DNA of 64,000 nt from an uncultured Actinomycetes bacterium (GCA_964622225.1 CAZUOG010000001.1:4830-68829); one strand, 5' to 3'; shown: positions 9,056 to 60,883, counted from the stretch's first letter. Notes: generated by a model not told the origin, from the sequence alone. A program made the numbers and translations.

Positions 9056-9995
9056 TCGTCACGTAGTTAGGGCTTGAATAGAAGCCGTCGGTTAATTTCA
9101 TTCTCTGCATCAATAAATCATTTAATAAAGCGCTTGCTCCAATGCGGAAATACTTATTGTTTAGCCAATCAGGCCCTGCAACTTCATTAACCAGAACTAA
9201 TTGCTTGATGGCATCTTTAGTATTGCGAATACCACCTGCGGGTTTTACTCCAACCTGAAATCCAGTTAATTCGCGGAAATCGCGGACTGCTTCCAACATC
9301 ACCATTACTACTGGTGGGGTAGCAGCCGGAGTTACTTTTCCGGTAGAAGTCTTGATGAAATCTCCACCTGCCAACATTGCAATATATGAAGCTTTGCGAA
9401 CATTGTCGTAGGTAACTAATTCACCAGTTTCGAAAATAACTTTTAGATGAGCTTTGTCTCCGCAAATTTCTTTGATCTGGACAATCTCATCAAATACTTC
9501 GCCAATTCGGCCTGAAAGGAATGCGCCGCGATCAATCACCATATCAATCTCAGCTGCACCTGCATCAATAGCATCTTTGGTATCTTGTAATTTCACTGCC
9601 ATTGAAGCGCGACCTGAAGGGAAAGCGGTCGAAACAGCGGCGACAGGTATTGCCTGACCGCCTATTGAATCTAAGTGTGTACGCGCGACTTTAACCATGT
9701 CGTTATATACGCATACGGCGCCAACACTTGGAACTGTTGGATCAGATGGCGCTGGTCTAACTGCTTTGGTGCACAGCGCGCGAACTTTTCCTGGAGTATC
9801 CGCACCTTCTAAGGTTGTTAAATCCACCATTGAAATAGCGGTATCAATTGCCCAAGCTTTACTTGAAGTTTTGATACTTCGCGTGCCAAGAACCGCAGCG
9901 CGGGCATCAGCACCAACTTGATCTACTGGCGGCAGATTATTTAGAAATGACTTAAGAGAACCTTCAGAGCCATCAACTAGCCCAAAGAATTGCAT
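9048..9995 (-). CDS. deoC: deoxyribose-phosphate aldolase (long form)
   Basis: 315 aa. Schiff-base lysine context FIKTSTGK. 8-nt overlap with the downstream ALDH. Confidence 0.88.
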   Translation of the reverse strand: MQFFGLVDGSEGSLKSFLNNLPPVDQVGADARAAVLGTRSIKTSSKAWAIDTAISMVDLTTLEGADTPGKVRALCTKAVRPAPSDPTVPSVGAVCVYNDMVKVARTHLDSIGGQAIPVAAVSTAFPSGRASMAVKLQDTKDAIDAGAAEIDMVIDRGAFLSGRIGEVFDEIVQIKEICGDKAHLKVIFETGELVTYDNVRKASYIAMLAGGDFIKTSTGKVTPAATPPVVMVMLEAVRDFRELTGFQVGVKPAGGIRNTKDAIKQLVLVNEVAGPDWLNNKYFRIGASALLNDLLMQRMKLTDGFYSSPNYVTID

Positions 9996-13349: not shown

Positions 13350-13951
13350 TTTGCTCCAATTCGTTTAGCTTCCGGCCAGGAATAGCCTAAGTGTTCCAAA
13401 GTTCTTCGCAAATAGGCCATAGATAGTCCGACCACATTTGTGTAATCACCATTAATGGCGCTAATAAATGGTGAACTGAAACCATCCAAAGTAAAGCCGC
13501 CGGCAACCTTTAATGGCTCACCAGTAGCTACGTAATCTTTGATTAGTTCTTCATCTAAAGTATCGAAGGTGACAGTTGTAGTCACGCGATCTGCCAATTC
13601 TCGGCCTTGTTTGGTATCGATTACGCAATGACCAGTGTGTAATAAACCAGTTTTGCCACTTATACGTTTTGCTCGTTCAATTGCAATTTCTGGCGTCGCT
13701 GGCTTGCCAAAAGATTTGCCTTCGAACTCAAATGTTGAATCACATGCCACGATAATTGCATCCCCATCAACGATTTCACGTACCGTGTGAGCTTTAGTAA
13801 TTGCCAAAGCAATAACCATGTCGGCAGGAGACATTGAGTTAAAGTGATCAGTTTCTTCGTCAACATGACTCACAATAATTTCAGGATGCAAACCAGCACC
13901 TTCGAGTAAACGCTTACGTGAAGGGGATTGTGAAGCAAGAATTAAGCGCAT
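13346..13951 (-). CDS. maf: Maf-like nucleoside triphosphate pyrophosphatase
   Basis: 201 aa, [11 protein letters not shown]-terminus. Its position between accE and accA matches mycobacterial gene order as I recall it. Confidence 0.85.
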
Positions 13952-14139
13952 TAGATATTTCTGCCCGCTCCAAATTTAATCGCTTGCGGCATTGGCGCCC
14001 TCATAATTGGCTGCGCCCAAGTGCTTCGCTTAACTACTGGATCTTTTTCCACTCTTTTATGTTGCGAAAGTACTTGCGTGATAATTGCTAATTCTTCGTT
14101 TGAAGGCTTACCGCTAACAATCGTAAATCGAACTGTCAT
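13951..14139 (-). CDS. acyl-CoA carboxylase epsilon subunit-like small protein
   Basis: 62 aa, coupled to the carboxyltransferase gene stop. The position is typical of AccE. Confidence 0.6.
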
Positions 14140-15707
14140 AGTGGGATATTTCCGTGCTTTCGCGGAGGCAATGAATCTCTCTTAGTTTTTAATGTGCGAA
14201 GTACCTTAGTGATGTATTCACGTGATTGATTTGGTTCAATAACCGCATCCACAATTCCGCGTTCCGCGGCGTTGTAAGGATTTGCAAGTGATTCGTTGTA
14301 TTCAGCTATAAGTTGAGCGCGAAGTGCTTCTGGATCTTTAGCTTCTGCAATTTCTTTGCGGTAGAGAATATTTACCGCACCTTGTCCACCCATTACCGCG
14401 ATTTCTGCAGTTGGCCAAGCGAAAACTACATCGCCACCAATCTGCTTTGAGCCCATAACAATGTATGCACCGCCATATGCTTTGCGGGTAACAAGAGTTA
14501 CCAATGGCACTGTGGCTTCGGCATATGCATAAAGCAATTTTGCACCTCTGCGGATGATTCCATCCCATTCTTGTTCGGTCCCAGGTAAGAAGCCAGGAAC
14601 ATCAACTAAAGTAATGATTGGAATATTGAATGCATCGCAGAAGCGAAGGAATCTCGCTGCTTTTTCCGAAGAATCGATATCTAGAGTTCCTGCAAGTTGC
14701 TGTGGTTGATTAGCAATAATTCCAACAGTTTCGCCTTCGATGCGACCATAACCAACGATGATGTTAGGTGCAAAGTTTGCGTGAACTTCTAGGAATTCAC
14801 CTTCATCAAGAAGTGCATGAATTACAGTTTTCATGTCGTATGGCTGATTTGGTGAATCAGGAATCAAGGTATCTAATGCCGTATCAGTTGCCTTGCGTGC
14901 AAGTGTTTCAGTTGCAGGCAAATGTGGGGCACCATCCATGTTGTTACTTGGCAAATAAGAGAGCAACGCTTTTACATAATCGATTGCATCTTCTTCAGAA
15001 TCTGCGAGGTAATGAGCATTACCGGTTTTTGAAGCATGGGTATGCGCTCCGCCAAGTTCTTCCATTCCAACTTCTTCACCAGTTACTGTCTTAATTACAT
15101 CTGGTCCCGTGATGAACATGTAAGACTTCTCATTAACCATCACTGTGAAATCAGTAAGAGCAGGTGAATAAGCAGCACCACCAGCGCATGGACCAAGAAT
15201 TAAAGAAATCTGAGGAATCACACCAGAAGATCTAGTATTCAAACGGAAAATATGTCCGTACCCACCAAGAGCTTGCACTCCTTCTTGAATACGCGCTCCG
15301 CCAGAATCATTGATTCCGATCAGTGGAACGCCATTCTTTAATGCGAACTCCATAATCTTTTTGATCTTCTCCGCCATAACTTCGCCAAGTGAACCGCCGA
15401 AAATTGTGAAATCTTGTGAATAAACCGCGACGCTTCGACCATCTATAGTGCCAAATCCAATTACAACACCATCGCCGTATGGACGATTCTTTTCCATTCC
15501 AAATGAATATGAACGATGACGAGCGAACTCATCCATTTCTTGGAAAGAACCTTCATCAAGTAGGAGCGCAATACGTTCGCGGGCAGTTAACTTTCCCTTG
15601 GCATGCTGTTTGGTAATCGCGGTCTCGCCAGCTGCATGAACAGCTTCATCGAGTCTAGCGCGTAAATCCTCAATCTTGCCTGCCGTAGTTTTCAGATCCT
15701 TGCTCAT
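14136..15707 (-). CDS. pccB: acyl-CoA carboxylase beta subunit (carboxyltransferase)
   Basis: 523 aa. Duplicated crotonase-like carboxyltransferase fold, as in PccB/AccD5. Confidence 0.9.
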
Positions 15708-15725
15708 GGGCTTACCGTACCTGCT

Positions 15726-16439
15726 GTGGGTATCGAAGGTCTAAAGGTCGACGCAATTAATTCAAAAGTTGCGCAGTACTGGTCAGTAAGCGTGATGGAA
15801 GAAACTTCTTCCACCCAATTTGAATTGGCAAATAATTTTCTGCCCGGAAAAGTTTTAGTAGCGGAATATCAAAGCGCAGGTCGCGGAAGACTAGATCGCA
15901 AATTCGAAGTTCCTCCTAGAAAAGGATTAACTTTTTCATTTGCATTAAATGCTGAAAAAGATTTTGGTTGGATTCCATTGATAACTGGATTAGCTGTTTC
16001 CAAAGCAATAAATAATTATGTCGGAGAGAATATTGTTGAAATCAAATGGCCAAATGATTTATTAGTTAACGGGAAAAAATTAGCGGGTATATTGAGCGAA
16101 AAAGTTAAATCAGGTGCAGTTGTTGGCGTTGGCATCAATATTTTTCAGGAACAAAATGAACTTCCAATTGAAAATGCTTTATCGCTTAGTATGGTTACAA
16201 AGGTAGATAGAACACATTTACTTGTCGCAATTCTAAACGAATTGGGAAATGCGCTTACTAATATTGAAAACTTTAAGAATGAATACCGCGAAAAATGTGC
16301 AACTATTGGAAAGACCGTTCAAGTAACCTTGCCAAACGGTGAAATTATTGAAGATGTAGCGGTTGGAATCTCAGAAACTGGTTCTTTGTTGCTGAATTCT
16401 CGTGAAATTAGCGTCGGGGATATAGTCCATTTACGTTAG
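15726..16439 (+). CDS. birA: biotin--[acetyl-CoA-carboxylase] ligase (no N-terminal HTH)
   Basis: GRGRLDRKF biotin-binding loop. Divergent from the carboxylase operon. Start (GTG) uncertain. Confidence 0.85.
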
Positions 16440-16446
16440 GTAAGAT

Positions 16447-17559
16447 GTGGTCGTGAAGTCATTCCCGAGAGTCGGAATCATTGGATCTGGTCAATTAGCG
16501 CAAATGACTTTAGCGCCAGCTGCTGCGCTTGGAATTGATTTAATTACTTTGGCAAACTCTTCAGAGGATTCTGCCGCCCAAAGCTCCCCGCATATTGTTG
16601 GAGATTTTCGAAATCTTGAAGATGTTCGTAATTTTGTAAGAGGTTGCGATGTCGTAACTTTCGAACATGAATTGATTCCACTCTCAATAATTAAGACTTT
16701 AGAGAGTGAAGGGGTTAAGTTCTTACCTTCATCGAGCGCTTTTCAATACTCTCAAGATAAAGCGGTAATGCGGGAAAAGTTGGCGCATTTACCTAATCCT
16801 AAATGGCAAGTAATAACCGAGGCACCTGATTGGAATTATCCAGCCATTGCAAAATCCATCTCTGGCGGATATGACGGCCGAGGCATATGGAAAGTGAATA
16901 ACAAAGAGGAATTAAAAGATTTGTTAAAAGAAGTTCCAAAATTGTTACTAGAAGAACTCATAGCTTTTGACTTTGAAATCGCAGTTATGGTCGCCCGCTC
17001 TCCGCACGGACAAGCTGCAACTTGGGCACCTACAAGAACAGTTCAAAAAGATGGTATTTGTATTGAAACAGTAACTCCAGTTCCAGAATTTAATGAAGCA
17101 AAAGCTTTGGCTGCACAAAACCTGGCACTTCAAATAGCGGATGAAATTAAATTAGTTGGAGTGATGGCAGTTGAAATGTTTGTTAAGGGCGATGAGTTGT
17201 TTATCAATGAATTAGCTCTACGCCCTCATAACTCGGGTCATTGGACAATTGAAGGATCCATTACAAGCCAATTCGAACAACATTTGCGTGCGGTTTTAGA
17301 TTTACCTTTAGGCGATACTTCAATGACCGCAGAATGGGCGGTCATGGGAAATGTTTTAGGTGGAGAAAAGAGCGATATGTATCGACCATATTTACATTTG
17401 ATGGCTCGAACACCTGCGCTCAAATTTCACCAATATCGTAAAGAGGTACGCCCTGGAAGAAAGATTGGCCACGTAACTATTACCGGAAATAACCTCGTAG
17501 AATTGCGCCAAGAAGTTGATCATGCACTTTTGTATATGAGCGGAGAAATTGATGAGTGA
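16447..17559 (+). CDS. purK: N5-carboxyaminoimidazole ribonucleotide synthase
   Basis: 370-aa ATP-grasp protein immediately upstream of and overlapping purE. Confidence 0.9.
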
Positions 17560-18058
17560 TGTAGCAATCATCATGGGTTCAGATTCCGATTGGCCAATCA
17601 TGGAAGCTGCCGCAAATGTTTTGGATGATTTCGGAATTTCATATACGGCCGAAGTGGTTTCAGCTCATCGCATGCCAGATGAGATGGCAGAGTTCGCTAA
17701 ATCTGCCACCAAGAATGGCTACAAAGTTATTATCGCGGGAGCAGGCGGTGCTGCACATTTACCAGGAATGGTCGCATCTCTCACCGTGCTTCCGGTGATT
17801 GGTGTTCCAGTTGCACTGGCAAATTTAGAAGGCATGGACTCACTTCTTTCGATCGTTCAAATGCCTGCAGGTATTCCAGTTGCAACAGTGGGTATCGGTA
17901 ATGCAAAGAACGCCGGAATACTCGCTGCACGTATATTGGCTACCTCAGATAGCGCACTCCAATCTAAAGTTGAAAGTGCTATGCAGAAATTAAATGCAGA
18001 AGCGAAAGCAAAAGGTGCATCTTTAAAAGCTAAGCGCTCACAGAAGACTGGTTTTTAG
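17549..18058 (+). CDS. purE: N5-carboxyaminoimidazole ribonucleotide mutase
   Basis: IIMGSDSD and GGAAHLPGM motifs. Confidence 0.92.
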
Positions 18059-18453
18059 CGCTTCTTATATTCAATCGCTGGACAACGGTCCATGATTGCA
18101 ATTAAACCTGCAGCTTCAGCTCTTGCAACTGCTTTTTCATCAATCACATCTAGTTGCAACCAGACGGCTTTTGCGCCTATTTCAATAGCTTCATCTACGA
18201 CTTTTCCAACTAGTTTGGAATTTATAAAGCAATCAACTACATCAATTTGAAATGGAATCTCTGAGAGAGATTTGTAGCCCTGTTCACCATGTACTTCTTC
18301 AGCTCTTGGATAAACTGGAACAATTTTGTGTCCCTTATCTTGGAGAAGTTTTGCAACTCCAAATGCAGCGCGTTCTGGATTGTTTCCTAAGCCAACAATT
18401 GCCCAGGTCTTCATTGCTAAGACTTGATCAATTGAATTATCGTCGAAACTCAT
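18055..18453 (-). CDS. CoA-binding domain protein
   Basis: [13 protein letters not shown] Rossmann-like motif. I prefer the ATG at 18453, which forms an ATGA overlap with the ugd stop, over the listed upstream start at 18495. Confidence 0.75.
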
Positions 18454-50215: not shown

Positions 50216-50901
50216 TGACATTAGTGCTTGTCGTCGATGACGATCAAGATCTCGCAGAGATGCTCGGCATTGTTTTAACTGGTGCCGGCATCGATGTTGA
50301 GATGGTTGGTCGCGGCGATGAAGCACTTGCAGCATTCCGTGAAACAAAACCAGATTTAGTTTTGTTAGATGTGATGCTTCCAGGAATAGATGGCGTTGAA
50401 GTTTGTAAACAAATTCGCGAAGAATCTATGGTTCCAATTGTGATGCTTACAGCTCGCGGCGATACACAAGATGTCGTCGCGGGACTGGAAGCAGGCGCGG
50501 ATGATTACATCGTTAAACCTTTTAGACATCCTTCAGAATTAGTAGCCCGTATTCGCACTCGATTACGTCGCTCAACTCTTCCTTCAACAGGTCAAGTCTC
50601 AATTGGTGATTTGAAGATTGACATGGTTGCTCATGAAGTAACACGTGCGGGACAGAAAATTTTGCTTACTCGTTTAGAGTTTGAATTACTTGCAGCGCTA
50701 GCTAAAGAACCGGGCCGAGTATTTACCCGCGAAGCGTTGCTTTCAGAAGTATGGGGATACCATCACTCTACTGACACTCGCTTGGTAAACGTTCACGTAC
50801 AGCGTTTGCGTTCTAAAGTTGAATTAGATCCAGATAATCCGGAAATTGTCCTAACCGTTCGCGGCGTGGGATATCGAGCGGGTTCAACGGCAAATAAGTG
50901 A
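50215..50901 (+). CDS. mtrA: OmpR-family response regulator MtrA
   Basis: Receiver domain (LVLLDVMLPG) plus winged helix (TVRGVGYR). TAATG coupling to ahcY. Confidence 0.88.
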   Translation: MTLVLVVDDDQDLAEMLGIVLTGAGIDVEMVGRGDEALAAFRETKPDLVLLDVMLPGIDGVEVCKQIREESMVPIVMLTARGDTQDVVAGLEAGADDYIVKPFRHPSELVARIRTRLRRSTLPSTGQVSIGDLKIDMVAHEVTRAGQKILLTRLEFELLAALAKEPGRVFTREALLSEVWGYHHSTDTRLVNVHVQRLRSKVELDPDNPEIVLTVRGVGYRAGSTANK

Positions 50902-52433
50902 AACTGACGCGTTGGTTGCGCCATTCCCTGGCAGCCCGAGTCGTTATTTCGACTTCATTACTTACATTTGCAGCCATTTGGATTGCAGGTTCTGCACTTT
51001 ATACAAACCTTTCAAATGGTATTAAAGGCGTTAAATATGAATCTTCGATTTCGGACACCAAAGCAACTGTTTACGCTTTGCAGTATCAGTTTCTATTAGC
51101 CGGTGGAAATATTAAGGCTATCCAAAAAGCGATTAATGACTTATCAACTAACGGTACAGTTTTCGGAACTACGACCAATACCGCGCCATATTTAGTTTTC
51201 ATACCTGCACCAAATACAAGTGTTAAAAAAGCAAATTTCACAACTGTTTCGGCATTTCTAACTGCTTCAATGATTCCAAAATCATTGCGCAAGGAAATTC
51301 AAAAAGACATCAAGCTCCACAGTTCCTATCAACGTATAACAAATACTTTCGGCCTCTCTTCAGAAGTACTTGTTGTGGGAAATCAGATTAATGTCCCAGG
51401 CGAAGGGCCATACGAACTTTATTTAATCTTCAATTTAGAAAATCAGCTCAAAACTTTAAATATTGTTTCAAATGCTTTGGTAGCTACAGGTTCTGCATTG
51501 GTATTACTTGTGGCTTTAGTTACATTACTAGTTGTGCGTCAAGTAGTTCGCCCCGTTCGCGAAGCAGCTAAAACAGCCGAGGCTTTAGCTTCTGGTGATT
51601 TGGGCAAGCGCATGGATGTACATGGTGATGATGAAATTGCGCGCCTTGGCAACGCATTTAATGAAATGGCTAATTCACTACAACTGCAAATTAATCGTTT
51701 GGAGAATTTGTCTTCTGTGCAACAGAGATTCGTTGGAGACGTAACGCACGAACTTCGTACTCCACTTACAACTTTGCGTATGGCAGCAGGAGTAATCCAT
51801 GGCTCAAAGAAGACTTTCGAACCAGCGCTTCAAAGAAGTGTAGAACTCATGATGGTGCAGCTAGATAGATTTGAACGCTTACTTGAGGATCTTCTGGAAA
51901 TTAGTCGTTTTGACGCGCAGGTAGCGGTGGTTGAACCTGTCGAATTCGATATCTGTCTGCTAACTACCAATGCAATTGATGATTTGCGCCTAGTTGCAAG
52001 CGAAGTTGGCGTTCACATTGAATTAGATCGACCAGCTGACTCAGTGTATGTAAAAGGCGATATTCGCAGAGTGGAGCGTATTTTGCGCAATTTACTAACT
52101 AATGCCATTGATCATGCCGAGAAAAAGCCAATCAAGGTGACCATTAAACATGACGAACATGCAGTAGCAATTTCGGTAAGAGATTTTGGTGTGGGCTTAG
52201 ATAAAGAAAGTTCATTGAGAGTTTTTGATCGATTCTGGCGAGCAGATCCATCACGTTCGCGCATTCGCGGTGGATCTGGACTTGGATTATCAATGGCTCT
52301 TGAAGATGCACGTTTGCATAATGGCGAACTTGAAGTTTATGGCGAGCCAGGCAAAGGCGCTAACTTTATATTAACTTTGCCAAAACATGCAGGTGGCGAA
52401 ATTCCACAACGCATCATTTCTCTTAAGTTCTAA
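50898..52433 (+). CDS. mtrB: sensor histidine kinase MtrB
   Basis: Two TM segments flanking an extracytoplasmic loop, HAMP, H-box HELRTPLT, G-boxes. Confidence 0.85.
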   Translation: MKLTRWLRHSLAARVVISTSLLTFAAIWIAGSALYTNLSNGIKGVKYESSISDTKATVYALQYQFLLAGGNIKAIQKAINDLSTNGTVFGTTTNTAPYLVFIPAPNTSVKKANFTTVSAFLTASMIPKSLRKEIQKDIKLHSSYQRITNTFGLSSEVLVVGNQINVPGEGPYELYLIFNLENQLKTLNIVSNALVATGSALVLLVALVTLLVVRQVVRPVREAAKTAEALASGDLGKRMDVHGDDEIARLGNAFNEMANSLQLQINRLENLSSVQQRFVGDVTHELRTPLTTLRMAAGVIHGSKKTFEPALQRSVELMMVQLDRFERLLEDLLEISRFDAQVAVVEPVEFDICLLTTNAIDDLRLVASEVGVHIELDRPADSVYVKGDIRRVERILRNLLTNAIDHAEKKPIKVTIKHDEHAVAISVRDFGVGLDKESSLRVFDRFWRADPSRSRIRGGSGLGLSMALEDARLHNGELEVYGEPGKGANFILTLPKHAGGEIPQRIISLKF

Positions 52434-52459
52434 TTAGCTTTAAGCGCCAGAATTAGTGG

Positions 52460-53101
52460 ATGCTGAATCCACTTAAGGAATTGCTTTTTCCGACACATTG
52501 CTTTGGTTGCAACGCACTTGGTTTAGAGATTTGTTCTAATTGCAGAAGATACTGGAGCCCTCATTTTTATATTCGAAACATTGAAGGTCTCACGGTTTAT
52601 TCATCCATTAGATATTCCGCAGTTGCTAGATCGATTCTATTAGGAGCTAAAGAGAATTCACTGAAAATAGCAGATGAGTTAATCATCAACGCCATAGTTG
52701 ATTGTATTCATCGACTACCCACAGCAATTTTACGTAATGCAATCCTGATGCCGATTCCTGGCTCAAAAAGAGCCATTCGCAAACGCGGTCGAGATTTCAT
52801 TGAATCAATTACCGATGAAGTTTCGCTTCGAACTGGAATTCCAACCAATACGGGAATGTTTGTTAAGAGAAGATTGTTAGATCAAAGTGGATTAAACGCG
52901 ATTGATCGTAAAAGAAATATTTTCGACTCTTTCGATTTTAATGGAGATTTAAGTAATAAAACCAATGTCGATATTCTCTTAATTGATGATTTGGTCACAA
53001 CTGGAGCGACACTTTTAGAGGCAAAAAGGGCCTTAAATGCTCAAGGTTTGGCAGTAAATCGGGCGATTACCGCCTGCATGGCGCAGACCCTTAACATATG
53101 A
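52460..53101 (+). CDS. ComF family phosphoribosyltransferase-like protein
   Basis: N-terminal CxxC...CxxC. PRTase loop [13 protein letters not shown]. Confidence 0.75.
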
Positions 53102-53123: not shown

Positions 53124-55784
53124 ATGTCTATTCTGGATCGCATTCTCCGTGCTGGCGAAGGTCGAATTCTCAAGGAGCTCGCAAGCATTGCCGAAGAGGT
53201 TAACTCATTTGAGCCAAAGATCTCGGCTCTTAGCGACTCTGAATTAGCTGCTAAGACTCCTGAATTTAAAAATCGTTTAGCCAATGGCGAAGATTTAGAT
53301 GATCTACTTCCTGAAGCATTTGCAGTAATTCGTGAAGCGGCTAAGCGCACCTTAGGGCAGCGTCACTATGACGTTCAGCTAATGGGCGGTGCAGCGCTTC
53401 ACAAAGGAAACATCGCAGAAATGCGTACCGGTGAAGGTAAGACCCTGGTCTCAACACTTCCGGCATATCTAAATGCATTGACCGGCAAAGGTGTTCACGT
53501 TGTAACTGTTAACGATTATCTTGCAGAGCGTGACTCTGAATGGATGGGGCGCGTACACCGTTTCCTTGGTTTAAAAGTTGGCGTGATTCTTGCTTCGATG
53601 ACTCCTGCAGAACGTCGTGAGGCTTACAACGCAGATATTACTTACGGAACAAATAATGAGTTTGGTTTTGATTATCTTCGCGACAACATGGCGTGGTCAC
53701 TAGAAGAATGCGTACAGCGTGGTCATAACTTCGCAATTGTTGACGAAACAGACTCGATTCTTATTGATGAAGCTCGTACTCCTTTAATTATTTCGGGTCC
53801 GGCAGATAAGCCAACCAAGTGGTATGTAGAGTTTGCGAATCTTGTTCAGAAATTAGAACGCGATGTTCATTATGAAGTTGATGAAAAGAAGCGCACTTCA
53901 GGAATTCTTGAAGCTGGCATTACAAAAGTCGAAGAGTTATTGCAGATCGGAAACCTTTATGAATCTGCAAATACACCACTTATTAGTTATTTAAATAACG
54001 CAATCCGTGCCAAAGAATTATTTAAGCGTGACAAAGATTATGTTGTTATGAATGGCGAATTACTTATCGTTGATGAGCACACTGGTCGAATTTTGGCTGG
54101 GCGTCGATATTCAGAAGGTATGCACCAAGCCCTAGAAGCTAAAGAACGTATTGAAATTCAAATTGAAAATCAGACTTTGGCGACAATTACACTGCAGAAT
54201 TACTTCCGCTTATACAAAAAAATCTCAGGTATGACCGGTACCGCGATGACCGAAGCTGCAGAATTCCATCAGATTTATAAGCTAGGCGTTGTTCCAATTC
54301 CTACAAACCGTCCAATGCAACGCAAAGATCAACCTGATTTGGTTTACAAAACCGAAGCTGGAAAATTTGAAGCAGTAGCGAAAGATATTACAGAGCGCTA
54401 CCGCAAGGGACAACCAGTTCTTGTAGGTACAGTCTCTGTTGAAAAATCTGAAGAACTTTCGGCAACTTTAAAGAAGTTTGGAGTTCCTCACGAAGTTCTT
54501 AACGCAAAGCAACATCAACGCGAAGCAGCGATCATCGCCCGCGCTGGTGTTAAAGGCGCCGTAACTGTTGCAACCAATATGGCTGGTCGCGGTACAGACA
54601 TCATGCTTGGTGGTAACCCAGAATTTATGGCGGACTTCGAAATTCAAAAGCGTGGTATTTCTCCAGTGGATAATCCTGCTGAATACGAAGAAGCGTGGCC
54701 AACTGAAATTGCAAAACAGAAAGCAGCAGTTGCTGCGGGGCATGAAGAAGTTATCGCTCTTGGCGGTCTGTATGTTTTAGGCACTGAACGTCACGAATCT
54801 CGTCGTATCGACAACCAGTTACGCGGACGTTCCGGTCGCCAAGGCGATCCAGGTGAATCTCGTTTTTATCTATCGCTTCAAGATGATTTGATGCGTCGAT
54901 TCAATTCTGCAATGGTGGAGCGATTCTTAACTGCAGCTGGAATTCCAGATGACCAACCAATTGAATCTAAAATGGTTTCAAATTCTATTAAGTCGGCACA
55001 GACCCAAGTTGAAGCTCAGAACTTTGAAATCCGTAAAAATGTTCTTAAGTACGACGATGTAATGAATCGCCAACGTGAAGTTATTTATGGCGAGCGTCGC
55101 TCAGTGCTTGAAGGAAAAGATATTTCAGAGCAAGTTCAGCGATTCCTTTCCGAAACCATCACTGCATACGTAACTGCAGCTACTTCAGACGGATACGCAG
55201 AAGATTGGGATTTAGATACTCTCTGGGCAGCGCTAGGTGCGATCTATCCAATCTCATTTACTTTGGCTGATTTAGAGAAGGAAGTAGGCGGTCGTAAAGG
55301 ACTTGATACTGAATTCTTAGCTTCAAGAATTGTTGAAGATGCGATTGCAGCCTACAAGAAGCGCGAAGAAACATTAACTCCACAAGTCATGCGTGAACTT
55401 GAGCGAAAAGTGCTGCTATCTGTTTTAGATCGCAAATGGCGCGAACATCTTTACGAAATGGATTACCTACAAGAGGGAATTGGCTTACGCGCTATGGCGC
55501 AACGTGATCCACTTGTGGAGTATCAGCGTGAAGGATTTGATCTTTTTGCTGCAATGATGGAAGGAATTCAGGAAGAAATTGCTGGATTTATTTTCAATGT
55601 TGAAGTAACAGTCGAAACAGAACATGTTCATGGTGGCGGATTGGATGCACCAAAGCCGCAACAACTTTCATATTCTTCTGCAGACGAATCGGGAGTTGTA
55701 AAGAGTGGGGAAGTTTCTCGTAACTCTTTATGTCCATGCGGTTCGGGCAAGAAATATAAGCGTTGCCACGGCGGAGCGAATTAA
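53124..55784 (+). CDS. secA: preprotein translocase ATPase SecA
   Basis: [28 protein letters not shown]-terminal zinc finger [14 protein letters not shown]. Confidence 0.95.
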
Positions 55785-55963
55785 ATTAAATCCAAACTGG
55801 TGCAGATCCATTTGTGATCTAAGCCTTCAAAACGCAATGCCATAGATCTTAAACGATCATTAAAACGAACTGTAACGGTACTTTCGCAAAGTCCATCCAA
55901 TGGTTCATTAATGTGAATTCTTCTAAATTTACCAACTTCTTTTTGATATCCAATAGAAGTCAA
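55781..55963 (-). CDS. Rv3235-like (DUF6459-like) ORF; only the part downstream of the sole canonical start (TTG). The open frame continues to 56170.
   Basis: The frame is open from 56170. The upstream part (..FAKSVLEIWAGKRSASQLSRYCHSAVYQDL..) looks like the conserved core of the family but has no ATG/GTG/TTG. See findings. Confidence 0.45.
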
Positions 55964-56258
55964 TAAATCTTGATAGACAGCGCTATGGCAATATCTGCTT
56001 AATTGTGAAGCGGAGCGCTTACCGGCCCATATTTCTAATACGCTCTTGGCAAAACTTTCTACGAATGTGTTGAGTTCAGGCAGTTCACTTGCCGAAGTAG
56101 GTTCAGGTTCAAAACCTGGAACGAAGTCTTCCTTGTATAGAGATGAGATTTTGTATAAATATGGTTTTGGTTAGGTGATAGTTTCCATGCGCCAAATCTC
56201 TAAAATTCAGAGCTTAAAGCCATCATTTTGTTTAATTAACTTACCTAGTCCTTAAGTC

Positions 56259-56278
56259 TGATTGTGGAAAAACAATCA
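56259..56278. promoter_or_regulatory. inverted repeat TGATTGT-N6-ACAATCA upstream of the SAF-domain gene
   Basis: Read directly. Ends 33 nt upstream of the ATG at 56311. Confidence 0.45.
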
Positions 56279-56310
56279 ATTCTTATGAGCTCGATTCTTA
56301 CTCTGCGAGC

Positions 56311-56901
56311 ATGAAAAATCGCATAGAAATTAAGAACGCAATCGCAATTACCGTAATTATCGCCTCTTTCTTTGTGGCAGTTGGGCTGGCACTTCTAGCA
56401 AATAACCGTGGCACTTATTGGATCGCAACTAAAGACTTAACTCCCGGACATATGGTCGATAGCACCGACTTCGTGCAGGCAAAAGCTGCTTTTGCTAGAG
56501 AAGCCAATGGTTATATTCAAGGTTCTCAAAATCCGGTTGGTTATTCAATATCAAAATACGTGTCGGCGGGAGAGTATTTGAATCAAAACTCATTAGTAGA
56601 AAGCAGCGGTGAAAGTAATGTAAAACTACTTTCATTTGCAGCTGCTGCCGCTGACTTACCATCGGGAATTCGAATCGGTGACGCAGTCAATCTTTATCAA
56701 GTAGTAAACGATGCTGGTGACGGAAAAGATATCCCCAGTGAACTAGTAATTGGAAATGTCTTTGTAGTTGATCTAAATCGCAAGAGTGAAAACTTAGGTG
56801 GCTCATCAATAGTCACTGTCGCAATCCCAAATGATTTTGTTGAAAGAGCTCTCAATGCAACAAGACGTGGTCGTATGGTTGTAGTGATTAATCATGGCTA
56901 A
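56311..56901 (+). CDS. membrane-anchored SAF-domain protein (CpaB/RcpC-like)
   Basis: N-terminal TM (AIAITVIIASFFVAVGLALLA), SAF-like segment ATKDLTPGHMVDSTDF, C-terminal VTVAIPNDFVERAL resembling the CpaB C-terminus. Confidence 0.65.
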   Translation: MKNRIEIKNAIAITVIIASFFVAVGLALLANNRGTYWIATKDLTPGHMVDSTDFVQAKAAFAREANGYIQGSQNPVGYSISKYVSAGEYLNQNSLVESSGESNVKLLSFAAAAADLPSGIRIGDAVNLYQVVNDAGDGKDIPSELVIGNVFVVDLNRKSENLGGSSIVTVAIPNDFVERALNATRRGRMVVVINHG

Positions 56902-57730
56902 ATTTGTAACCTATATTGCAGATCCTGAGCTTGAATCCAGTGTAATCAAAGCCATTGCAGCCATTAAAGGCGAATTAGCAGTGCGTGGGGTTTCAATTGA
57001 TCAAGTTCGTGAAGCCGAAAAAACCCCAGATATGACGTTAGTTTGCACCAGGCAAATTGATTTCGCTTTTCGAAGAGTTATCGTTGATAAGTCGATGTCT
57101 ACCAGTGAAATTTCAGAGATTCTTTTGCCAAGTAGTAAACAGCCACAATTCAATTTTAATGCAGATGGCGCCAAAGTGATTTGCTTCGTAGGTTTGTCTG
57201 GAGGGGTAGGAACAACTACTTTGGCAATTAATTACGCTTTCGAAAAATCACAAATTTCAACAGTAATGCTCTCAGATTTAGATGGAAAGAATCCTGATAT
57301 TGCTAGAGCGTTAGGTTTACATAGAATAGAAGGAAGAAATGAAAAAATTTCTAAATCTTTATTTGCATCTCAAGGCATACCAGCGCCTATGCAATGCGAT
57401 AAATATGTATTTGATTTAGGTAGCAATATTCACCATCCAATGTTGGAAATTGCCGATGAGATTTATCTAGTATCAAGAGTTGGTTTTAATACATTGGCAA
57501 GATTGCAGGAACTTGATTTAACACCGGCTGCTTTAGTAATTAATTTTGCCGATAGAACAAAGGCGCAAATTAAGTGGTTAAACCAAATCGAAGAGGCTTT
57601 TCCTAGACTCAATATTTTAAGAGTTCCATTTGATATTAAGGCCTTCGAGTCAGCTGCAGAGAGCAAGAGCGCTTTAATCGAGATTGCAGCGAATTCGCTA
57701 GCCAGAAAATCCATCGCTACTCTTGGCTAA
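56894..57730 (+). CDS. CpaE/MinD/ParA-like protein with degenerate Walker A
   Basis: VICFVGLSGGVGTTTLA (P-loop at 57191-57220) against the canonical KGGxGK[ST]. N-terminal receiver-like region. 8-nt overlap with the SAF gene. Confidence 0.65.
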   Translation: MAKFVTYIADPELESSVIKAIAAIKGELAVRGVSIDQVREAEKTPDMTLVCTRQIDFAFRRVIVDKSMSTSEISEILLPSSKQPQFNFNADGAKVICFVGLSGGVGTTTLAINYAFEKSQISTVMLSDLDGKNPDIARALGLHRIEGRNEKISKSLFASQGIPAPMQCDKYVFDLGSNIHHPMLEIADEIYLVSRVGFNTLARLQELDLTPAALVINFADRTKAQIKWLNQIEEAFPRLNILRVPFDIKAFESAAESKSALIEIAANSLARKSIATLG

Positions 57731-58077
57731 TGCGCGTTTATGTAGCCACCACCCCAGAGGCTCTCAAAGAGCTTTTGGCTGGAAGCGCCACATTTGATGA
57801 ATACCTAACTCCAGAGCAGTTTGAATTTGATACCGGAGTAGATGTTGAAGAGCGCGAACATTTAGTCAGCTTGCTTGCCGCGGATGATTCTTTGGAATTA
57901 AATCAAGGCAAAGTTGGACTGGTTATTGCTGCAGACCTAGATGAAGAGCAATTAAATGGTGAGTCATTCACTCTCACTTTCAAACAAGTTGCCGCACTTT
58001 TACATTCGCTTGATGGAGAAGAGCTTTCTTGGTTTGCACCTGAGGAAATTGCACATCAATTAGGCGGAATTATCTAA
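57730..58077 (+). CDS. highly acidic hypothetical protein (115 aa)
   Basis: About 24 Asp/Glu versus 5 Lys/Arg by my count. TAATG overlaps at both ends. Confidence 0.6.
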   Translation: MRVYVATTPEALKELLAGSATFDEYLTPEQFEFDTGVDVEEREHLVSLLAADDSLELNQGKVGLVIAADLDEEQLNGESFTLTFKQVAALLHSLDGEELSWFAPEEIAHQLGGII

Positions 58078-59459
58078 TGGCACAAATTGAGGAACTCCTT
58101 GAGGGCAATTCTCAATTGAATGCAGATGAGATCTCACACCTCAAGAAAATAGCTTCTGACTGGCAACTGATTGCAGATTTAAGTTTTGCAGATCTAGCAA
58201 TTTGGGTTGAGACCGAAGATAAGAGAAATATTGCAGTAGCTCAAGTTCGAGCAGCAACTGCGGCGACAGTTTTCCCTAAAGATTTTGTTGGTGATGTTGT
58301 TGATCAATTATTTCATGGAGCCGGAGTAGATTATTTTCCGATCAGGTTTCACAACAAAGTAATTGCACAAATTGCCCGCCATCACAATTCTGATGCCACA
58401 AGAGTGTCTGGGCGTCTTGAGGGCGAGTATCAGGAAATTGCCCAGCGAATTCTAGAAATGGTCGGTGAGGGAACATTCCCATTTGAAACCATTATTAGTT
58501 CCTTAAATCCTTCCCCTCGTGTTGGTGATGGGTTTATTAGATTAGATAAGAGCAGCGTTATTAAATATGCCAGCCCAAATGGTCGTTCTGCATTTAGCAG
58601 ACTTGGCTGGGAGAGTGAACTTGAAAACGTTCGACTTTCAGAAGTCGCTGCAGCCATTACACATCAATCAGTCACTCAACTCGACGAGACAATTAATATT
58701 CCACAGGTTTCTCAAATTGAATTGGAATCTCGTGGCGGAAGTATTGAATTAACAATTTTACCTTTGCTGCAAAGTGGTGTCAGATTAGGAAGCGTGGTTC
58801 TGCTTCATAACGTGACCGAGATTCGCCGCCGCGAACGTGAATTAATGCTTAAAGACGCTACAATTAAAGAGATTCATCACCGCGTGAAAAATAATTTACA
58901 GACAGTTTCAGCGCTATTAAGACTCCAATCAAGAAGAGTGGAGGATAAGAAAGCACAAGGAGCTCTAGATGAAGCAGTGCGCCGTATTTCTTCGATTGCT
59001 TTAGTGCATGAGACTTTATCTACTAGTGGCAAAGATGAGGTTGATTTCGACTCTGTTGTGGATTCATTAATTAGTCACGCCGTTGATTTAGCACCAAGAG
59101 TCCCGGGAAGTATTACCGATATTTCTGTCAAGCGATTAGGTTCATTAGGGGCGGTAGATCCAAAAGTAGCTACTCCGCTTTCATTGGTAATTACCGAGTT
59201 GGTGGCAAATGCAATTGAGCATGGATTAACTACAAAAGGCAGCAAAGTTGATGTAGTTTTCAGTCGCACAGGAAGTAGTTGCGTAGTGAAAATTGAAGAT
59301 GACGGCGTTGGATTGCCCGATGGGTTTACCCTAAAAGATTCATCTAATTTAGGTTTACAAATTGTGCGCACACTTACGGAGAGTGAATTAAAAGGTTCTT
59401 TAGAATTATCAGGAAACGAAAAAGGAACTACCGCGCAATTGCGCTTTGAAGTTCGTTAG
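58077..59459 (+). CDS. pdtaS: cytoplasmic sensor histidine kinase, PdtaS-like (GAF/PAS + HisKA_2-type H-box)
   Basis: H-box IHHRVKNNLQTVSALLRLQ, HATPase N/G boxes (ELVANAIEHG, DDGVGLP). No TM segments. Confidence 0.8.
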   Translation: MAQIEELLEGNSQLNADEISHLKKIASDWQLIADLSFADLAIWVETEDKRNIAVAQVRAATAATVFPKDFVGDVVDQLFHGAGVDYFPIRFHNKVIAQIARHHNSDATRVSGRLEGEYQEIAQRILEMVGEGTFPFETIISSLNPSPRVGDGFIRLDKSSVIKYASPNGRSAFSRLGWESELENVRLSEVAAAITHQSVTQLDETINIPQVSQIELESRGGSIELTILPLLQSGVRLGSVVLLHNVTEIRRRERELMLKDATIKEIHHRVKNNLQTVSALLRLQSRRVEDKKAQGALDEAVRRISSIALVHETLSTSGKDEVDFDSVVDSLISHAVDLAPRVPGSITDISVKRLGSLGAVDPKVATPLSLVITELVANAIEHGLTTKGSKVDVVFSRTGSSCVVKIEDDGVGLPDGFTLKDSSNLGLQIVRTLTESELKGSLELSGNEKGTTAQLRFEVR

Positions 59460-59731
59460 TTTTCTTCGTGGCGATTTAATTCAGCCATACGTGCACGATT
59501 ACGTGCAGCGCGGCGCTTCATAGCTCGACGTTCATCTTCTGAAAGTCCGCCCCAAACTCCTGCATCTTGTCCAGACTCAAGCGCCCATGCCAAGCATTGA
59601 TCCTTAACGGAGCAACGCATACAGACTTTTTTGGCTTCTTCAATCTGCGTAATCGCAGGGCCGGTGTTGCCTACCGGAAAGAAAAGCTCTGGATCCTCGT
59701 CACGGCATGCACTCTGATGGCGCCAATCCAT
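59456..59731 (-). CDS. whiB1: WhiB family transcription factor (WhiB1-type)
   Basis: MDWRHQSACRDEDPELFFP..., CMRC...C, GVWGG, basic tail. Confidence 0.9.
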   Translation of the reverse strand: MDWRHQSACRDEDPELFFPVGNTGPAITQIEEAKKVCMRCSVKDQCLAWALESGQDAGVWGGLSEDERRAMKRRAARNRARMAELNRHEEN

Positions 59732-59860: not shown

Positions 59861-59932
59861 CGCCCTCGGCAGGATTCGAACCTGCGCACCGGCCTCCGGA
59901 GGGCCGTGCTCTATCCCCTGAGCTACGAGGGC
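59861..59932 (-). tRNA. tRNA-Arg (anticodon CCG)
   Basis: Hand-folded cloverleaf. Acceptor GCCCTCG/CGAGGGC, D stem GCTC/GAGC, anticodon stem CGGCC/GGCCG with loop CTCCGGA, T arm GCAGG-TTCGAAT-CCTGC. No encoded CCA. Confidence 0.85.
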
Positions 59933-59989: not shown

Positions 59990-60883
59990 ATGGAGAAAGC
60001 TTATTTTGCAACAGGATGCTTTTGGGGCGCAGAACGTAGATTCTGGAATCTTCCAGGGGTCGTAAGTACATCTGTCGGTTACATGGGTGGACATACTGAA
60101 AATCCAACCTATGAAGAGGTCTGTAAGAAAACTACAAACCATGCTGAAACTGTTGAAGTCACCTTTGATCCGCAGCAGATTTCGTATCAAAGATTGCTTG
60201 AAGAATTCTTCACAATGCATGATCCGACTTCGCTTAATCAACAAGGTGGAGATATTGGAACTCAATATCGAAGCGCTATTTTTTACACCTCTCCAGAGCA
60301 GGAAGCGCTCGCATTTAATGCCGCAAAAGTCTATGGAAAAGTCTTGGCCAACGAAGGTTTAGGCGCAATCGTTACCGAAATTAATGATGCAAAACCTCAT
60401 AAGTATTGGTTAGCCGAGGAGTATCACCAACGTTATTTGGAGAAGAATCCAAATGGCTACGACTGCCATTCTTCAACAGGTGTTGCCTATCCATCGGTCA
60501 ATGAAGATGAATTGAAAAAAAGATTAGATCCTCTTTCTTATGAAGTATTGCGTAAAGGTGCAACAGAGCGCCCTTTTACAGGCGAATACACCGACACAGA
60601 CAAAGTTGGCGTATATAAATGCAAAGCTTGCAATTCCGAACTTTTCCGTAGCGAAACCAAGTTTCATTCAGGATGCGGATGGCCATCTTTCTACGCGCCA
60701 ACCGAAGCTGATGCTGTTATTTTGCTAGAAGATCGTTCACTTGCGCCAAGAGTCAGAACTGAAGTTCGTTGTGCAACATGTAATTCACATTTGGGACATG
60801 TTTTTGAAGGTGAAGGATTTGATACCCCAACAGATCAGCGTTGGTGCATCAATTCAGTTTCATTGATTTTGGAAGATATTTAA
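59990..60883 (+). CDS. msrAB: bifunctional methionine sulfoxide reductase MsrA-MsrB fusion
   Basis: N-terminal GCFWG (MsrA). C-terminal CKACNSELF, CATCNSHLGHVF and RWCINS (MsrB). Confidence 0.9.
   Translation: MEKAYFATGCFWGAERRFWNLPGVVSTSVGYMGGHTENPTYEEVCKKTTNHAETVEVTFDPQQISYQRLLEEFFTMHDPTSLNQQGGDIGTQYRSAIFYTSPEQEALAFNAAKVYGKVLANEGLGAIVTEINDAKPHKYWLAEEYHQRYLEKNPNGYDCHSSTGVAYPSVNEDELKKRLDPLSYEVLRKGATERPFTGEYTDTDKVGVYKCKACNSELFRSETKFHSGCGWPSFYAPTEADAVILLEDRSLAPRVRTEVRCATCNSHLGHVFEGEGFDTPTDQRWCINSVSLILEDI

Follow-up and report, generated by a model that had tools for sequence, protein, structure and literature searches.

Genome streamlining as the probable origin of a four-gene cluster that ends in pdtaS in Candidatus Nanopelagicaceae

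Why should the gene for a soluble PdtaS-type histidine kinase close a run of four overlapping genes, the first two of which resemble components of Tad/Flp pilus systems? The run occupies positions 56311–59459 of a 64,000-nucleotide (nt) stretch of DNA, hereafter the window, which originates from Candidatus Nanopelagicaceae (the freshwater, genome-streamlined acI lineage, with genomes of ~1.3–1.5 Mb) and is 43% GC and 96% coding. According to the original prediction, a repurposed, ATPase-dead Tad-derived scaffold tethers or localises PdtaS at the membrane, or feeds envelope signals to it. We consider it probable instead that genome streamlining joined two ancestrally separate pieces, giving a cluster that is co-transcribed but modular. 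The four same-strand open reading frames (ORFs) are listed below, with protein lengths in amino acids (aa).

56311..56901, plus strand: ORF1, single-pass SAF-domain membrane protein, CpaB/RcpC/FlgA-like, 196 aa (profile matches, transmembrane prediction)
56894..57730, plus strand: ORF2, TadZ/Ssd/BcsQ-like MinD/ParA-fold protein, 278 aa (profiles, AlphaFold2 (AF2) model, Foldseek)
57730..58077, plus strand: ORF3, shortened and strongly acidic DUF6912 protein, 115 aa (PF21853 match, AF2 model)
58077..59459, plus strand: ORF4, pdtaS, soluble GAF-PAS-HisKA_2-HATPase_c histidine kinase, 460 aa (Pfam, PDB match)

Outside the family, these genes were found in separate pieces. In Tsukamurella the order mtrA-mtrB-lpqB-phosphoribosyltransferase...secA-(Rv3235 family)-WS/DGAT-DUF6912 (193.9 bits) is followed by ~23 kb, msrA and aroA included, and then by sigH-rsrA-pdtaS and a minus-strand whiB; this is the window's order and orientation in expanded form. 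Nonomuraea carries DUF6912 (206 bits) 11 kb downstream of secA beside a HAD hydrolase gene, with pdtaS ~2.9 Mb away between an opposite-strand GntR-like gene upstream (identified from reading its translation) and whiB. A pdtaS-whiB pair is also present in Nocardia. No SAF, ParA-like or DUF6912 gene lies upstream of pdtaS in any of these three genomes, and the sigH-rsrA-pdtaS-whiB order of Tsukamurella, a member of the Mycobacteriales, agrees with the earlier statement that no such genes precede pdtaS in mycobacterial pdtaS-whiB1 neighbourhoods. The three records are filed as plasmids in PLSDB, and are chromosomes or pieces of them (NZ_LT559118.1, Nonomuraea, 11.85 Mb; NZ_LN868939.1, Nocardia, 2.66 Mb; NZ_LR134451.1, Tsukamurella, 0.42 Mb); their core genes include secA, pdtaS and whiB.

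The complete upstream piece was recovered from other relatives. An exhaustive HMMER search with a DUF6912 profile returned only 38 representatives, nearly all acI-like; among them was one recognised outgroup member, P0229. This protein is encoded on L085, a contig of an NCBI metagenome-assembled genome (MAG) from a 60%-GC actinobacterium (GCA_038242765.1; L numbers denote individual loci). The order there is secA, DUF6459 on the minus strand, a few genes, CpaB-like SAF, ParA-like, WS/DGAT and DUF6912; the SAF/ParA-like and DGAT/DUF6912 junctions overlap at ATGA, and pdtaS is absent. The L085 proteins are homologous to those of Nanopelagicaceae, with matches down to E 4.5e-14 for SAF, 5e-10 for ParA-like and 6.7e-8 for DUF6912. 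A tblastn search of PLSDB with P0229 and the L085 ParA-like protein gave no matches. To keep acI out, a metagenome scan used GC-rich codons to spell the C-terminal DUF6912 motif; it yielded 80 further loci of 67–79% GC. WS/DGAT directly precedes DUF6912 in most of them, and the longer contigs read secA...SAF-ParA-like-(0–3.5 kb)-DGAT-DUF6912. Both SAF and ParA-like genes lie upstream in seven loci (L104, L109, L138, L152, L156, L159 and L162), ~10 more have a ParA-like gene at the contig end, and L150 reads secA-DGAT-DUF6912 without the pair. The 80 high-GC loci contained neither pdtaS nor tadA (0/80). The linkage to pdtaS that the original prediction relied on did not extend to the other Actinobacteria sampled: relatives carry WS/DGAT in place of pdtaS, or have DUF6912 and pdtaS 23 kb or ~2.9 Mb apart.

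An ORF of ~170–196 aa precedes SAF in the high-GC relatives (L085 5838–6362; L104 6175–6762; L159 6838–7347; L138 10733–11362). It has no Pfam or NCBIfam match and no detectable counterpart in Nanopelagicaceae. Genes of the M. tuberculosis Rv3212/Rv3213c type beyond whiB1 were considered as a displaced SAF/ParA pair. The ATPase gene concerned adjoins a PQQ beta-propeller gene and a helicase gene in Tsukamurella, with no SAF gene; SAF and ParA-like queries did not match it, and the idea was dropped.

Within Nanopelagicaceae the arrangement is close to universal. Scanning genomes with Planktophila-type DUF6912 as the seed gave 80 species-level loci, and L001 brings the total to 81. All four genes were found in the same order in 71 of the 74 loci that span secA to pdtaS, and pdtaS directly follows DUF6912 in 81/81. 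The whole region is collinear across the family, as mtrB-comF-secA-SAF-ParA-like-DUF6912-pdtaS-whiB-msrAB with whiB on the minus strand, and gene order is conserved far beyond chance. The exceptions concern the first two genes. DUF6912-pdtaS follows secA almost directly in L016 and L074, where SAF and ParA-like are both missing (9991–9995 and 2352–2500, respectively), and L071 retains a 132-aa C-terminal remnant of ParA-like (762–1157), the pair being otherwise lost; assembly artefacts are possible for all three deletions. DUF6912-pdtaS is intact in each. Because the DUF6912 type of L016 differs from that of L071 and L074, the pair was lost at least twice. Identities between the window and Planktophila are 21–22% for ParA-like, 26–31% for SAF and 32–38% for DUF6912, compared with 48–50% for PdtaS, 80% for SecA and 91–94% for WhiB; on these figures the SAF/ParA-like/DUF6912 triad appears to evolve much faster than its neighbours.

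Five of the loci (L005, L007, L035, L054 and L074) come from lake MAGs titled 'Bifidobacterium breve' or 'Streptomyces griseus' that have Nanopelagicaceae gene order and sequences and are probably mislabelled. Word-index searches with ParA-like, DUF6912 and a PdtaS profile returned matches only from Nanopelagicales; the PdtaS profile gave 7999 matches, and 120/120 among the matches listed were acI. A 'distant' DUF6912 group tried as an outgroup proved to be Planktophila, and the scan built from it gave Nanopelagicaceae only.

The overlaps themselves carry little information. The three junctions within the cluster overlap by 8, 1 and 1 nt (ATGGCTAA at 56894–56901, TAATG at 57728–57732 and TAATG at 58075–58079). 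We reproduced every ORF, junction position and overlap given in the original prediction, save that the 'four junction pairs' it counted are three. With start codons set by the longest ORF, 27/47 adjacent same-strand pairs in the window overlap, mostly at ATGA or TAATG, and functionally unrelated neighbours do so too, for example the AdoHcy hydrolase gene and the ORF upstream of mtrB. A run of three overlaps has a chance expectation of ~0.19, about one in five. Since overlaps are the rule in the window, three in succession are unremarkable, and coupling by overlap at the four-gene cluster is not special in this genome. A sequence scan found no terminator-like site inside the cluster, and weak promoter-like sites were fewer than expected from shuffled sequence (3 versus 8.6). 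For these reasons co-transcription of the four genes is likely, an expectation that holds equally for much of this genome. The compact operon-like unit first described is thus upheld by its single strand, the lack of a terminator-like site and the order kept in 71/74 loci.

The first two products were identified through distant similarity. ORF1 has one N-terminal transmembrane helix (residues 11–29), and its Pfam and NCBIfam scores all fall below cut-off (ChapFlgA 16.4, SAF 14.7, TIGR03170 27.6 and TIGR03177 17.3 bits). Its Planktophila ortholog clears the SAF-related Pfam model ChapFlgA (29.7 bits, cut-off 23.8). None of the window (17.3 bits), Planktophila (29.6 bits) and L085 (31.5 bits) proteins reaches the 71-bit cut-off of the CpaB/RcpC model TIGR03177. 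A CpaB-like SAF product had been proposed, and CpaB and FlgA models are indeed the best NCBIfam matches, below their curated cut-offs; the CpaB/RcpC likeness is a resemblance only.

ORF2 gave weak, sub-threshold CbiA/ParA matches (Pfam CbiA 18.5 bits, TIGR03815 18.3 bits; TIGR03371 14.7 bits, cut-off 157.85). The best NCBIfam model was Ssd/CpaE_hom_Actino (TIGR03815), far under its cut-off of 154.45 bits in the window (18.3 bits), Planktophila (23.7 bits) and L085 (56.3 bits); the L085 match spans model positions 102–331 of 340, and the other two cover the P-loop region only. The AF2 model (predicted local distance difference test, pLDDT, 82.9) comprises an N-terminal beta-alpha repeat domain (residues 1–80) and a MinD/ParA domain. 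Foldseek placed 3ea0 first (E 3e-8, probability 1.0), with BcsQ at E 8e-7; 173 PDB entries passed E<=1e-3, mainly MinD/ParA/Get3-type SIMIBI proteins among those listed. A profile search of PDB also ranked 3ea0 first (E 4.4e-7) and BcsQ second (8.7e-5), followed by FleN/FlhG and Soj. The 3ea0 entry is a Chlorobium protein with the deposited name 'ParA family ATPase', and we take it to be the ATPase domain of a TadZ. ORF2 is accordingly modelled with a MinD/ParA fold. Its P-loop, GLSGGVGTTT (residues 100–109), contains no lysine and departs from the deviant Walker A motif KGGxGK[ST] in having lost both lysines; the form GLSGGVGTT[TS] is invariant in an alignment of 15 window-type relatives. Planktophila-type P-loops read AAHAGAGCTS, SHSTGNT and similar, and the high-GC relatives have WGPxGAPGR[TS]T, in which Arg replaces Lys and the signature Lys is absent. 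In L085, where Ssd is again the best model (56 bits), the motif is GPSGAPGRST. The acI motifs have degenerated further than the high-GC forms, which fits a long-standing non-catalytic role. From the motif, the pseudo-ATPase label appears justified; the ATPase-dead CpaE/MinD-like assignment made earlier is thus borne out by the lysine-less P-loop, by 3ea0 as best match in both sequence and fold, and by Ssd/CpaE as best NCBIfam model.

The acidic nature of the 115-aa third product was evident (isoelectric point 4.05; 24 D+E versus 5 K+R), as first described; the accompanying statement that it has no recognisable domain was not sustained, as Pfam PF21853 (DUF6912) matches at 35.3 bits (cut-off 27) over profile positions 1–84 of 160. 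The Planktophila ortholog and P0229 score 60.5 and 67.7 bits, respectively. ORF3 aligns to the full-length Tsukamurella protein (193.9 bits) save for an internal deletion of ~30 aa. Its AF2 model is confident (pLDDT 90.3), and no PDB fold match was found for it (best E 0.32). No literature on DUF6912 was found. ORF4 matches GAF_PdtaS (95.9 bits), HisKA_2 (90.4 bits; HHRVKNN) and HATPase_c (49.2 bits), all above cut-off, and aligns with the sensor of M. tuberculosis PdtaS (PDB 2ykf, E 2e-49) including the EIHH motif. No transmembrane segment was predicted. By domain content ORF4 is a canonical soluble PdtaS, as the earlier description of a PdtaS-type kinase without a membrane anchor had it. A search for literature on PdtaS together with whiB1 found none.

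These findings suggest the following history. One piece would be an old module downstream of secA, made up of a CpaB-like SAF protein, a TadZ/Ssd-like MinD/ParA-fold protein whose P-loop is predicted to be unable to support normal ATP hydrolysis, and acidic DUF6912; the other would be the convergent pdtaS-whiB1 pair. The ancestral order may have been secA, SAF/ParA-like, DGAT-DUF6912, many genes and then pdtaS-whiB1. Nanopelagicaceae would then have lost DGAT together with all the genes that separated DUF6912 from pdtaS, leaving survivors that became contiguous and overlapping. The remaining genes would be transcribed as one, most probably from the ~140 nt at 56171–56310. If TadZ and BcsQ are taken as models, the SAF protein could anchor the ATPase-dead ParA-like protein at the membrane, and the latter could act as a nucleotide-independent or binding-only adaptor. 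DUF6912 may be a separate small acidic cytoplasmic partner protein, and PdtaS the usual soluble kinase, co-expressed with the other three and independent of them.

How does this history compare with functional explanations of the same gene order? If SAF, the ATPase-dead ParA-like protein and DUF6912 formed a membrane scaffold that tethers or localises PdtaS or relays envelope signals to it, the strict, tight order in Nanopelagicaceae (71/74 loci; DUF6912-pdtaS 81/81) would be expected; PdtaS has no membrane anchor and the SAF protein has one, and BcsQ and TadZ are known P-loop-dead MinD-like scaffolds. Yet the linkage is absent from every non-Nanopelagicaceae context examined, three loci (L016, L071 and L074) lost SAF/ParA-like and kept pdtaS and DUF6912, overlapping junctions are ordinary in this genome, and elsewhere the triad has another frequent partner in WS/DGAT. 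Among the contexts examined, adjacency to pdtaS is confined to Nanopelagicaceae, and the PdtaS link is probably incidental. Adjacency was the only evidence for a dedicated PdtaS scaffold and is lineage-specific, so the proposal loses its main argument. Its Tad-derived, apparently ATPase-dead character stood; PdtaS tethering, with nothing found beyond that adjacency, did not, and we regard such a scaffold as quite improbable. DUF6912 alone might instead be a PdtaS-specific modulator in Nanopelagicaceae, such as an acidic inhibitor or partner, with SAF/ParA-like an unrelated decaying remnant. This would account for an adjacency (81/81) that outlasts loss of the pair, for an ORF3 that is shortened and remodelled (~30–60 residues fewer than the full-length family) and for the disappearance of its usual neighbour DGAT. 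We think it very improbable: adjacency within a wholly collinear region is the sole evidence, DUF6912 elsewhere adjoins DGAT or a HAD hydrolase gene far from pdtaS, and the short form is not tied to pdtaS, the L085 protein being also short (128 aa) though behind DGAT.

Could SAF and ParA-like still be working CpaB/RcpC-like and TadZ-like accessories of a Tad/Flp pilus or competence system encoded elsewhere, their position next to pdtaS being incidental? With the L085 Tad proteins as queries, we ran phmmer against the window (ORFs of at least 40 aa) and against the 80 Nanopelagicaceae loci (ORFs of at least 50 aa). TadA (the L085 query scoring 252 bits to TIGR03819) had no match at E<=0.01 in the window or the 80 loci, nor did TadB, TadC, Flp-like, TadE or Tad give any match there; a short pilin could escape such a search, and the queries did not include a prepilin peptidase. 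None of TadA, TadB and TadC was found within 10 kb either side in the 80 loci. The absence of TadA, TadB/C and pilin noted from the window, with secA upstream and whiB downstream, thus held at this depth of search. A tad locus guessed from ORF sizes at 29–35 kb of the window, or at 0.1–6.8 kb, was discarded when Pfam gave unrelated genes in these segments (Mrp, MgtE, Nramp, EamA, PHP, MarC, and ABC permeases with nucleoside enzymes). No literature on pili in acI was found. L085 has a complete tadA-tadB-tadC-flp-like-tadE-tad cluster at 13676–18071, 3.3 kb downstream of DUF6912 and before prfB-ftsE-ftsX (TIGR03819 252 bits; TadE Rv3654c-like). A tad locus elsewhere, with no conserved linkage of the pair to pdtaS, is what the original prediction had named as counting against it, and outside the family this was found, the L085 cluster lying 3.3 kb from the triad. 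This proximity favours a Tad accessory role, as do the best family matches, CpaB and Ssd/CpaE_hom_Actino, and the gene order: a SAF gene followed by a TadZ-like gene forms the 5' end of actinobacterial tad operons. Against it stand the lack of TadA/B/C in the window, within 10 kb of the 80 Nanopelagicaceae loci and in the 80 high-GC loci, scores far under every family cut-off, and the dispensability of the SAF/ParA-like pair in some acI lineages. Actinobacterial Tad systems can also function without TadZ, as that of M. luteus does (PMC4322843). On balance we hold a Tad accessory role to be unlikely.

A bolder possibility, which we rate as a long shot, is that SAF, the lysine-less TadZ/Ssd-like protein, WS/DGAT and DUF6912 make up an unrecognised membrane hub of hydrolysis-dead ParA type that organises an envelope or lipid process (triacylglycerol or wax-ester) and was rewired onto PdtaS in Nanopelagicaceae after loss of the acyltransferase. 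The joining of two pieces by streamlining also has points that weigh against it. The outgroup sample is limited to a single NCBI MAG, the three PLSDB chromosomes filed as plasmids and a set of mostly short, untyped soil contigs picked with a GC-rich codon pattern; low-GC relatives of Nanopelagicaceae fall outside it. The anchor and adaptor roles are inferred from analogy with TadZ and BcsQ. The DUF6912-pdtaS junction is tight in every Nanopelagicaceae locus (overlap or gap <=~12 nt), which a functional partnership would also produce; because the whole region is collinear, we treat this junction as uninformative rather than contrary.

The surroundings of the cluster were annotated as follows.

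53124..55784, plus strand: secA, 886-aa ORF (E 0 to the annotated Tsukamurella secA), upstream synteny anchor in the block mtrB-comF-secA...
55781..56170, minus strand: DUF6459 (Rv3235-family) gene remnant, divergent from the cluster, filling most of an apparent 526-nt gap
56171..56310, plus strand: putative promoter region, ~140 nt, the one non-coding stretch of any size just 5' of ORF1 (from gene positions)
59456..59731, minus strand: whiB, WhiB1-type by synteny (Pfam Whib 94.9 bits), convergent with pdtaS

The L001 ortholog of SecA, 92% identical to that of the window, has SecA Pfam domains. The DUF6459 remnant matches residues 30–157 of the L001 DUF6459 protein (67% identity, E 1e-66, tblastn), has an in-frame stop upstream and a sole canonical start that gives 60 aa, and is either a truncated gene or pseudogene, or the product of a sequencing error. 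A sigma-70 consensus scan of 56171–56310 and an Rfam search of the 5' region of the cluster gave no match. At the other end, the pdtaS stop TAG (59457–59459) overlaps the minus-strand whiB stop TAA (59456–58), 59455–59459 reading GTTAG, with no spacer or terminator between the two genes. A tRNA gene lies beyond whiB (59861–59932, minus strand; Rfam RF00005, 64.7 bits), followed by a fused msrA-msrB ORF of 297 aa (59990–60883). Many Planktophila-type loci (L002–L027) match this ORF twice, which suggests split genes there. Upstream, at 50898–53101, mtrB is followed directly by a comF-like phosphoribosyltransferase gene and then secA; lpqB and raiA/hpf, present at the mtrB-secA position in Tsukamurella (L206), are missing from the window, a further sign of compaction.

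The main lesson for work on PdtaS is one of caution. The operon is striking and belongs to the most abundant Actinobacteria of fresh water, yet genome compaction explains it best, and it should not be read as a sign that PdtaS has a membrane partner. Downstream of secA, the sampled lineages conserve an orphan CpaB-like/TadZ-like pair whose P-loop lacks lysine, mostly apart from pilus machinery and apparently unstudied. DUF6912 combines a confident predicted structure that has no solved-structure match with a WS/DGAT neighbour in most high-GC relatives sampled. The wider SAF/TadZ-like/DGAT/DUF6912 neighbourhood of Actinobacteria might deserve separate investigation, and the acI lineages without the SAF/ParA-like pair offer a natural comparison for functional tests.

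Among known systems, the closest in layout is the CpaB(RcpC)-CpaE(TadZ) pair, including M. tuberculosis TadZ/Ssd (Rv3660c, TIGR03815), which has the gene order of ORF1-ORF2. ORF2 shares with CpaE/TadZ a MinD/ParA fold with an atypical Walker A motif, and the small N-terminal alpha/beta domain of its model may correspond to theirs. Unlike Tad loci, the window has no TadA, TadB, TadC, pilin or TadE near the pair, which lies downstream of secA and not in a tad operon; ORF1 and ORF2 also score far below the CpaB and CpaE cut-offs (17 versus 71 and 18 versus 154 bits), and the ORF2 P-loop lacks any lysine. BcsQ of cellulose secretion and FleN/FlhG, which are MinD-like positioning or scaffold proteins, share the SIMIBI/MinD fold predicted for ORF2, and BcsQ also has a GGVGTT-type P-loop and a small partner, BcsR, just as a small gene adjoins ORF2. 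Neither bcs nor flagellar genes accompany ORF2, and BcsQ is an ATP binder that retains Arg/Lys contacts. Within the uncharacterised actinobacterial DUF6912 family (PF21853), ORF3 shares the N-terminal MRxY..., EE.E and C-terminal (E/D)LxW(F/Y)A..E motifs. Full-length members have 160–180 aa, ORF3 being reduced to 115 aa by its internal deletion, and in most sampled high-GC relatives DUF6912 follows WS/DGAT, which ORF3 does not. Compared with PdtaS/PdtaR of Mycobacterium (Rv3220c/Rv1626), ORF4 contains every domain of the PdtaS architecture and is 41% identical to the sensor domain of the M. tuberculosis protein; PdtaR, the ANTAR response regulator (Rv1626), is unlinked to pdtaS in M. tuberculosis. 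The gene upstream of pdtaS differs between lineages, with sigH-rsrA in Mycobacteriales (Tsukamurella) and DUF6912 only in Nanopelagicaceae, and the convergent pdtaS-whiB pair is common to the window, Tsukamurella, Nocardia and Nonomuraea.

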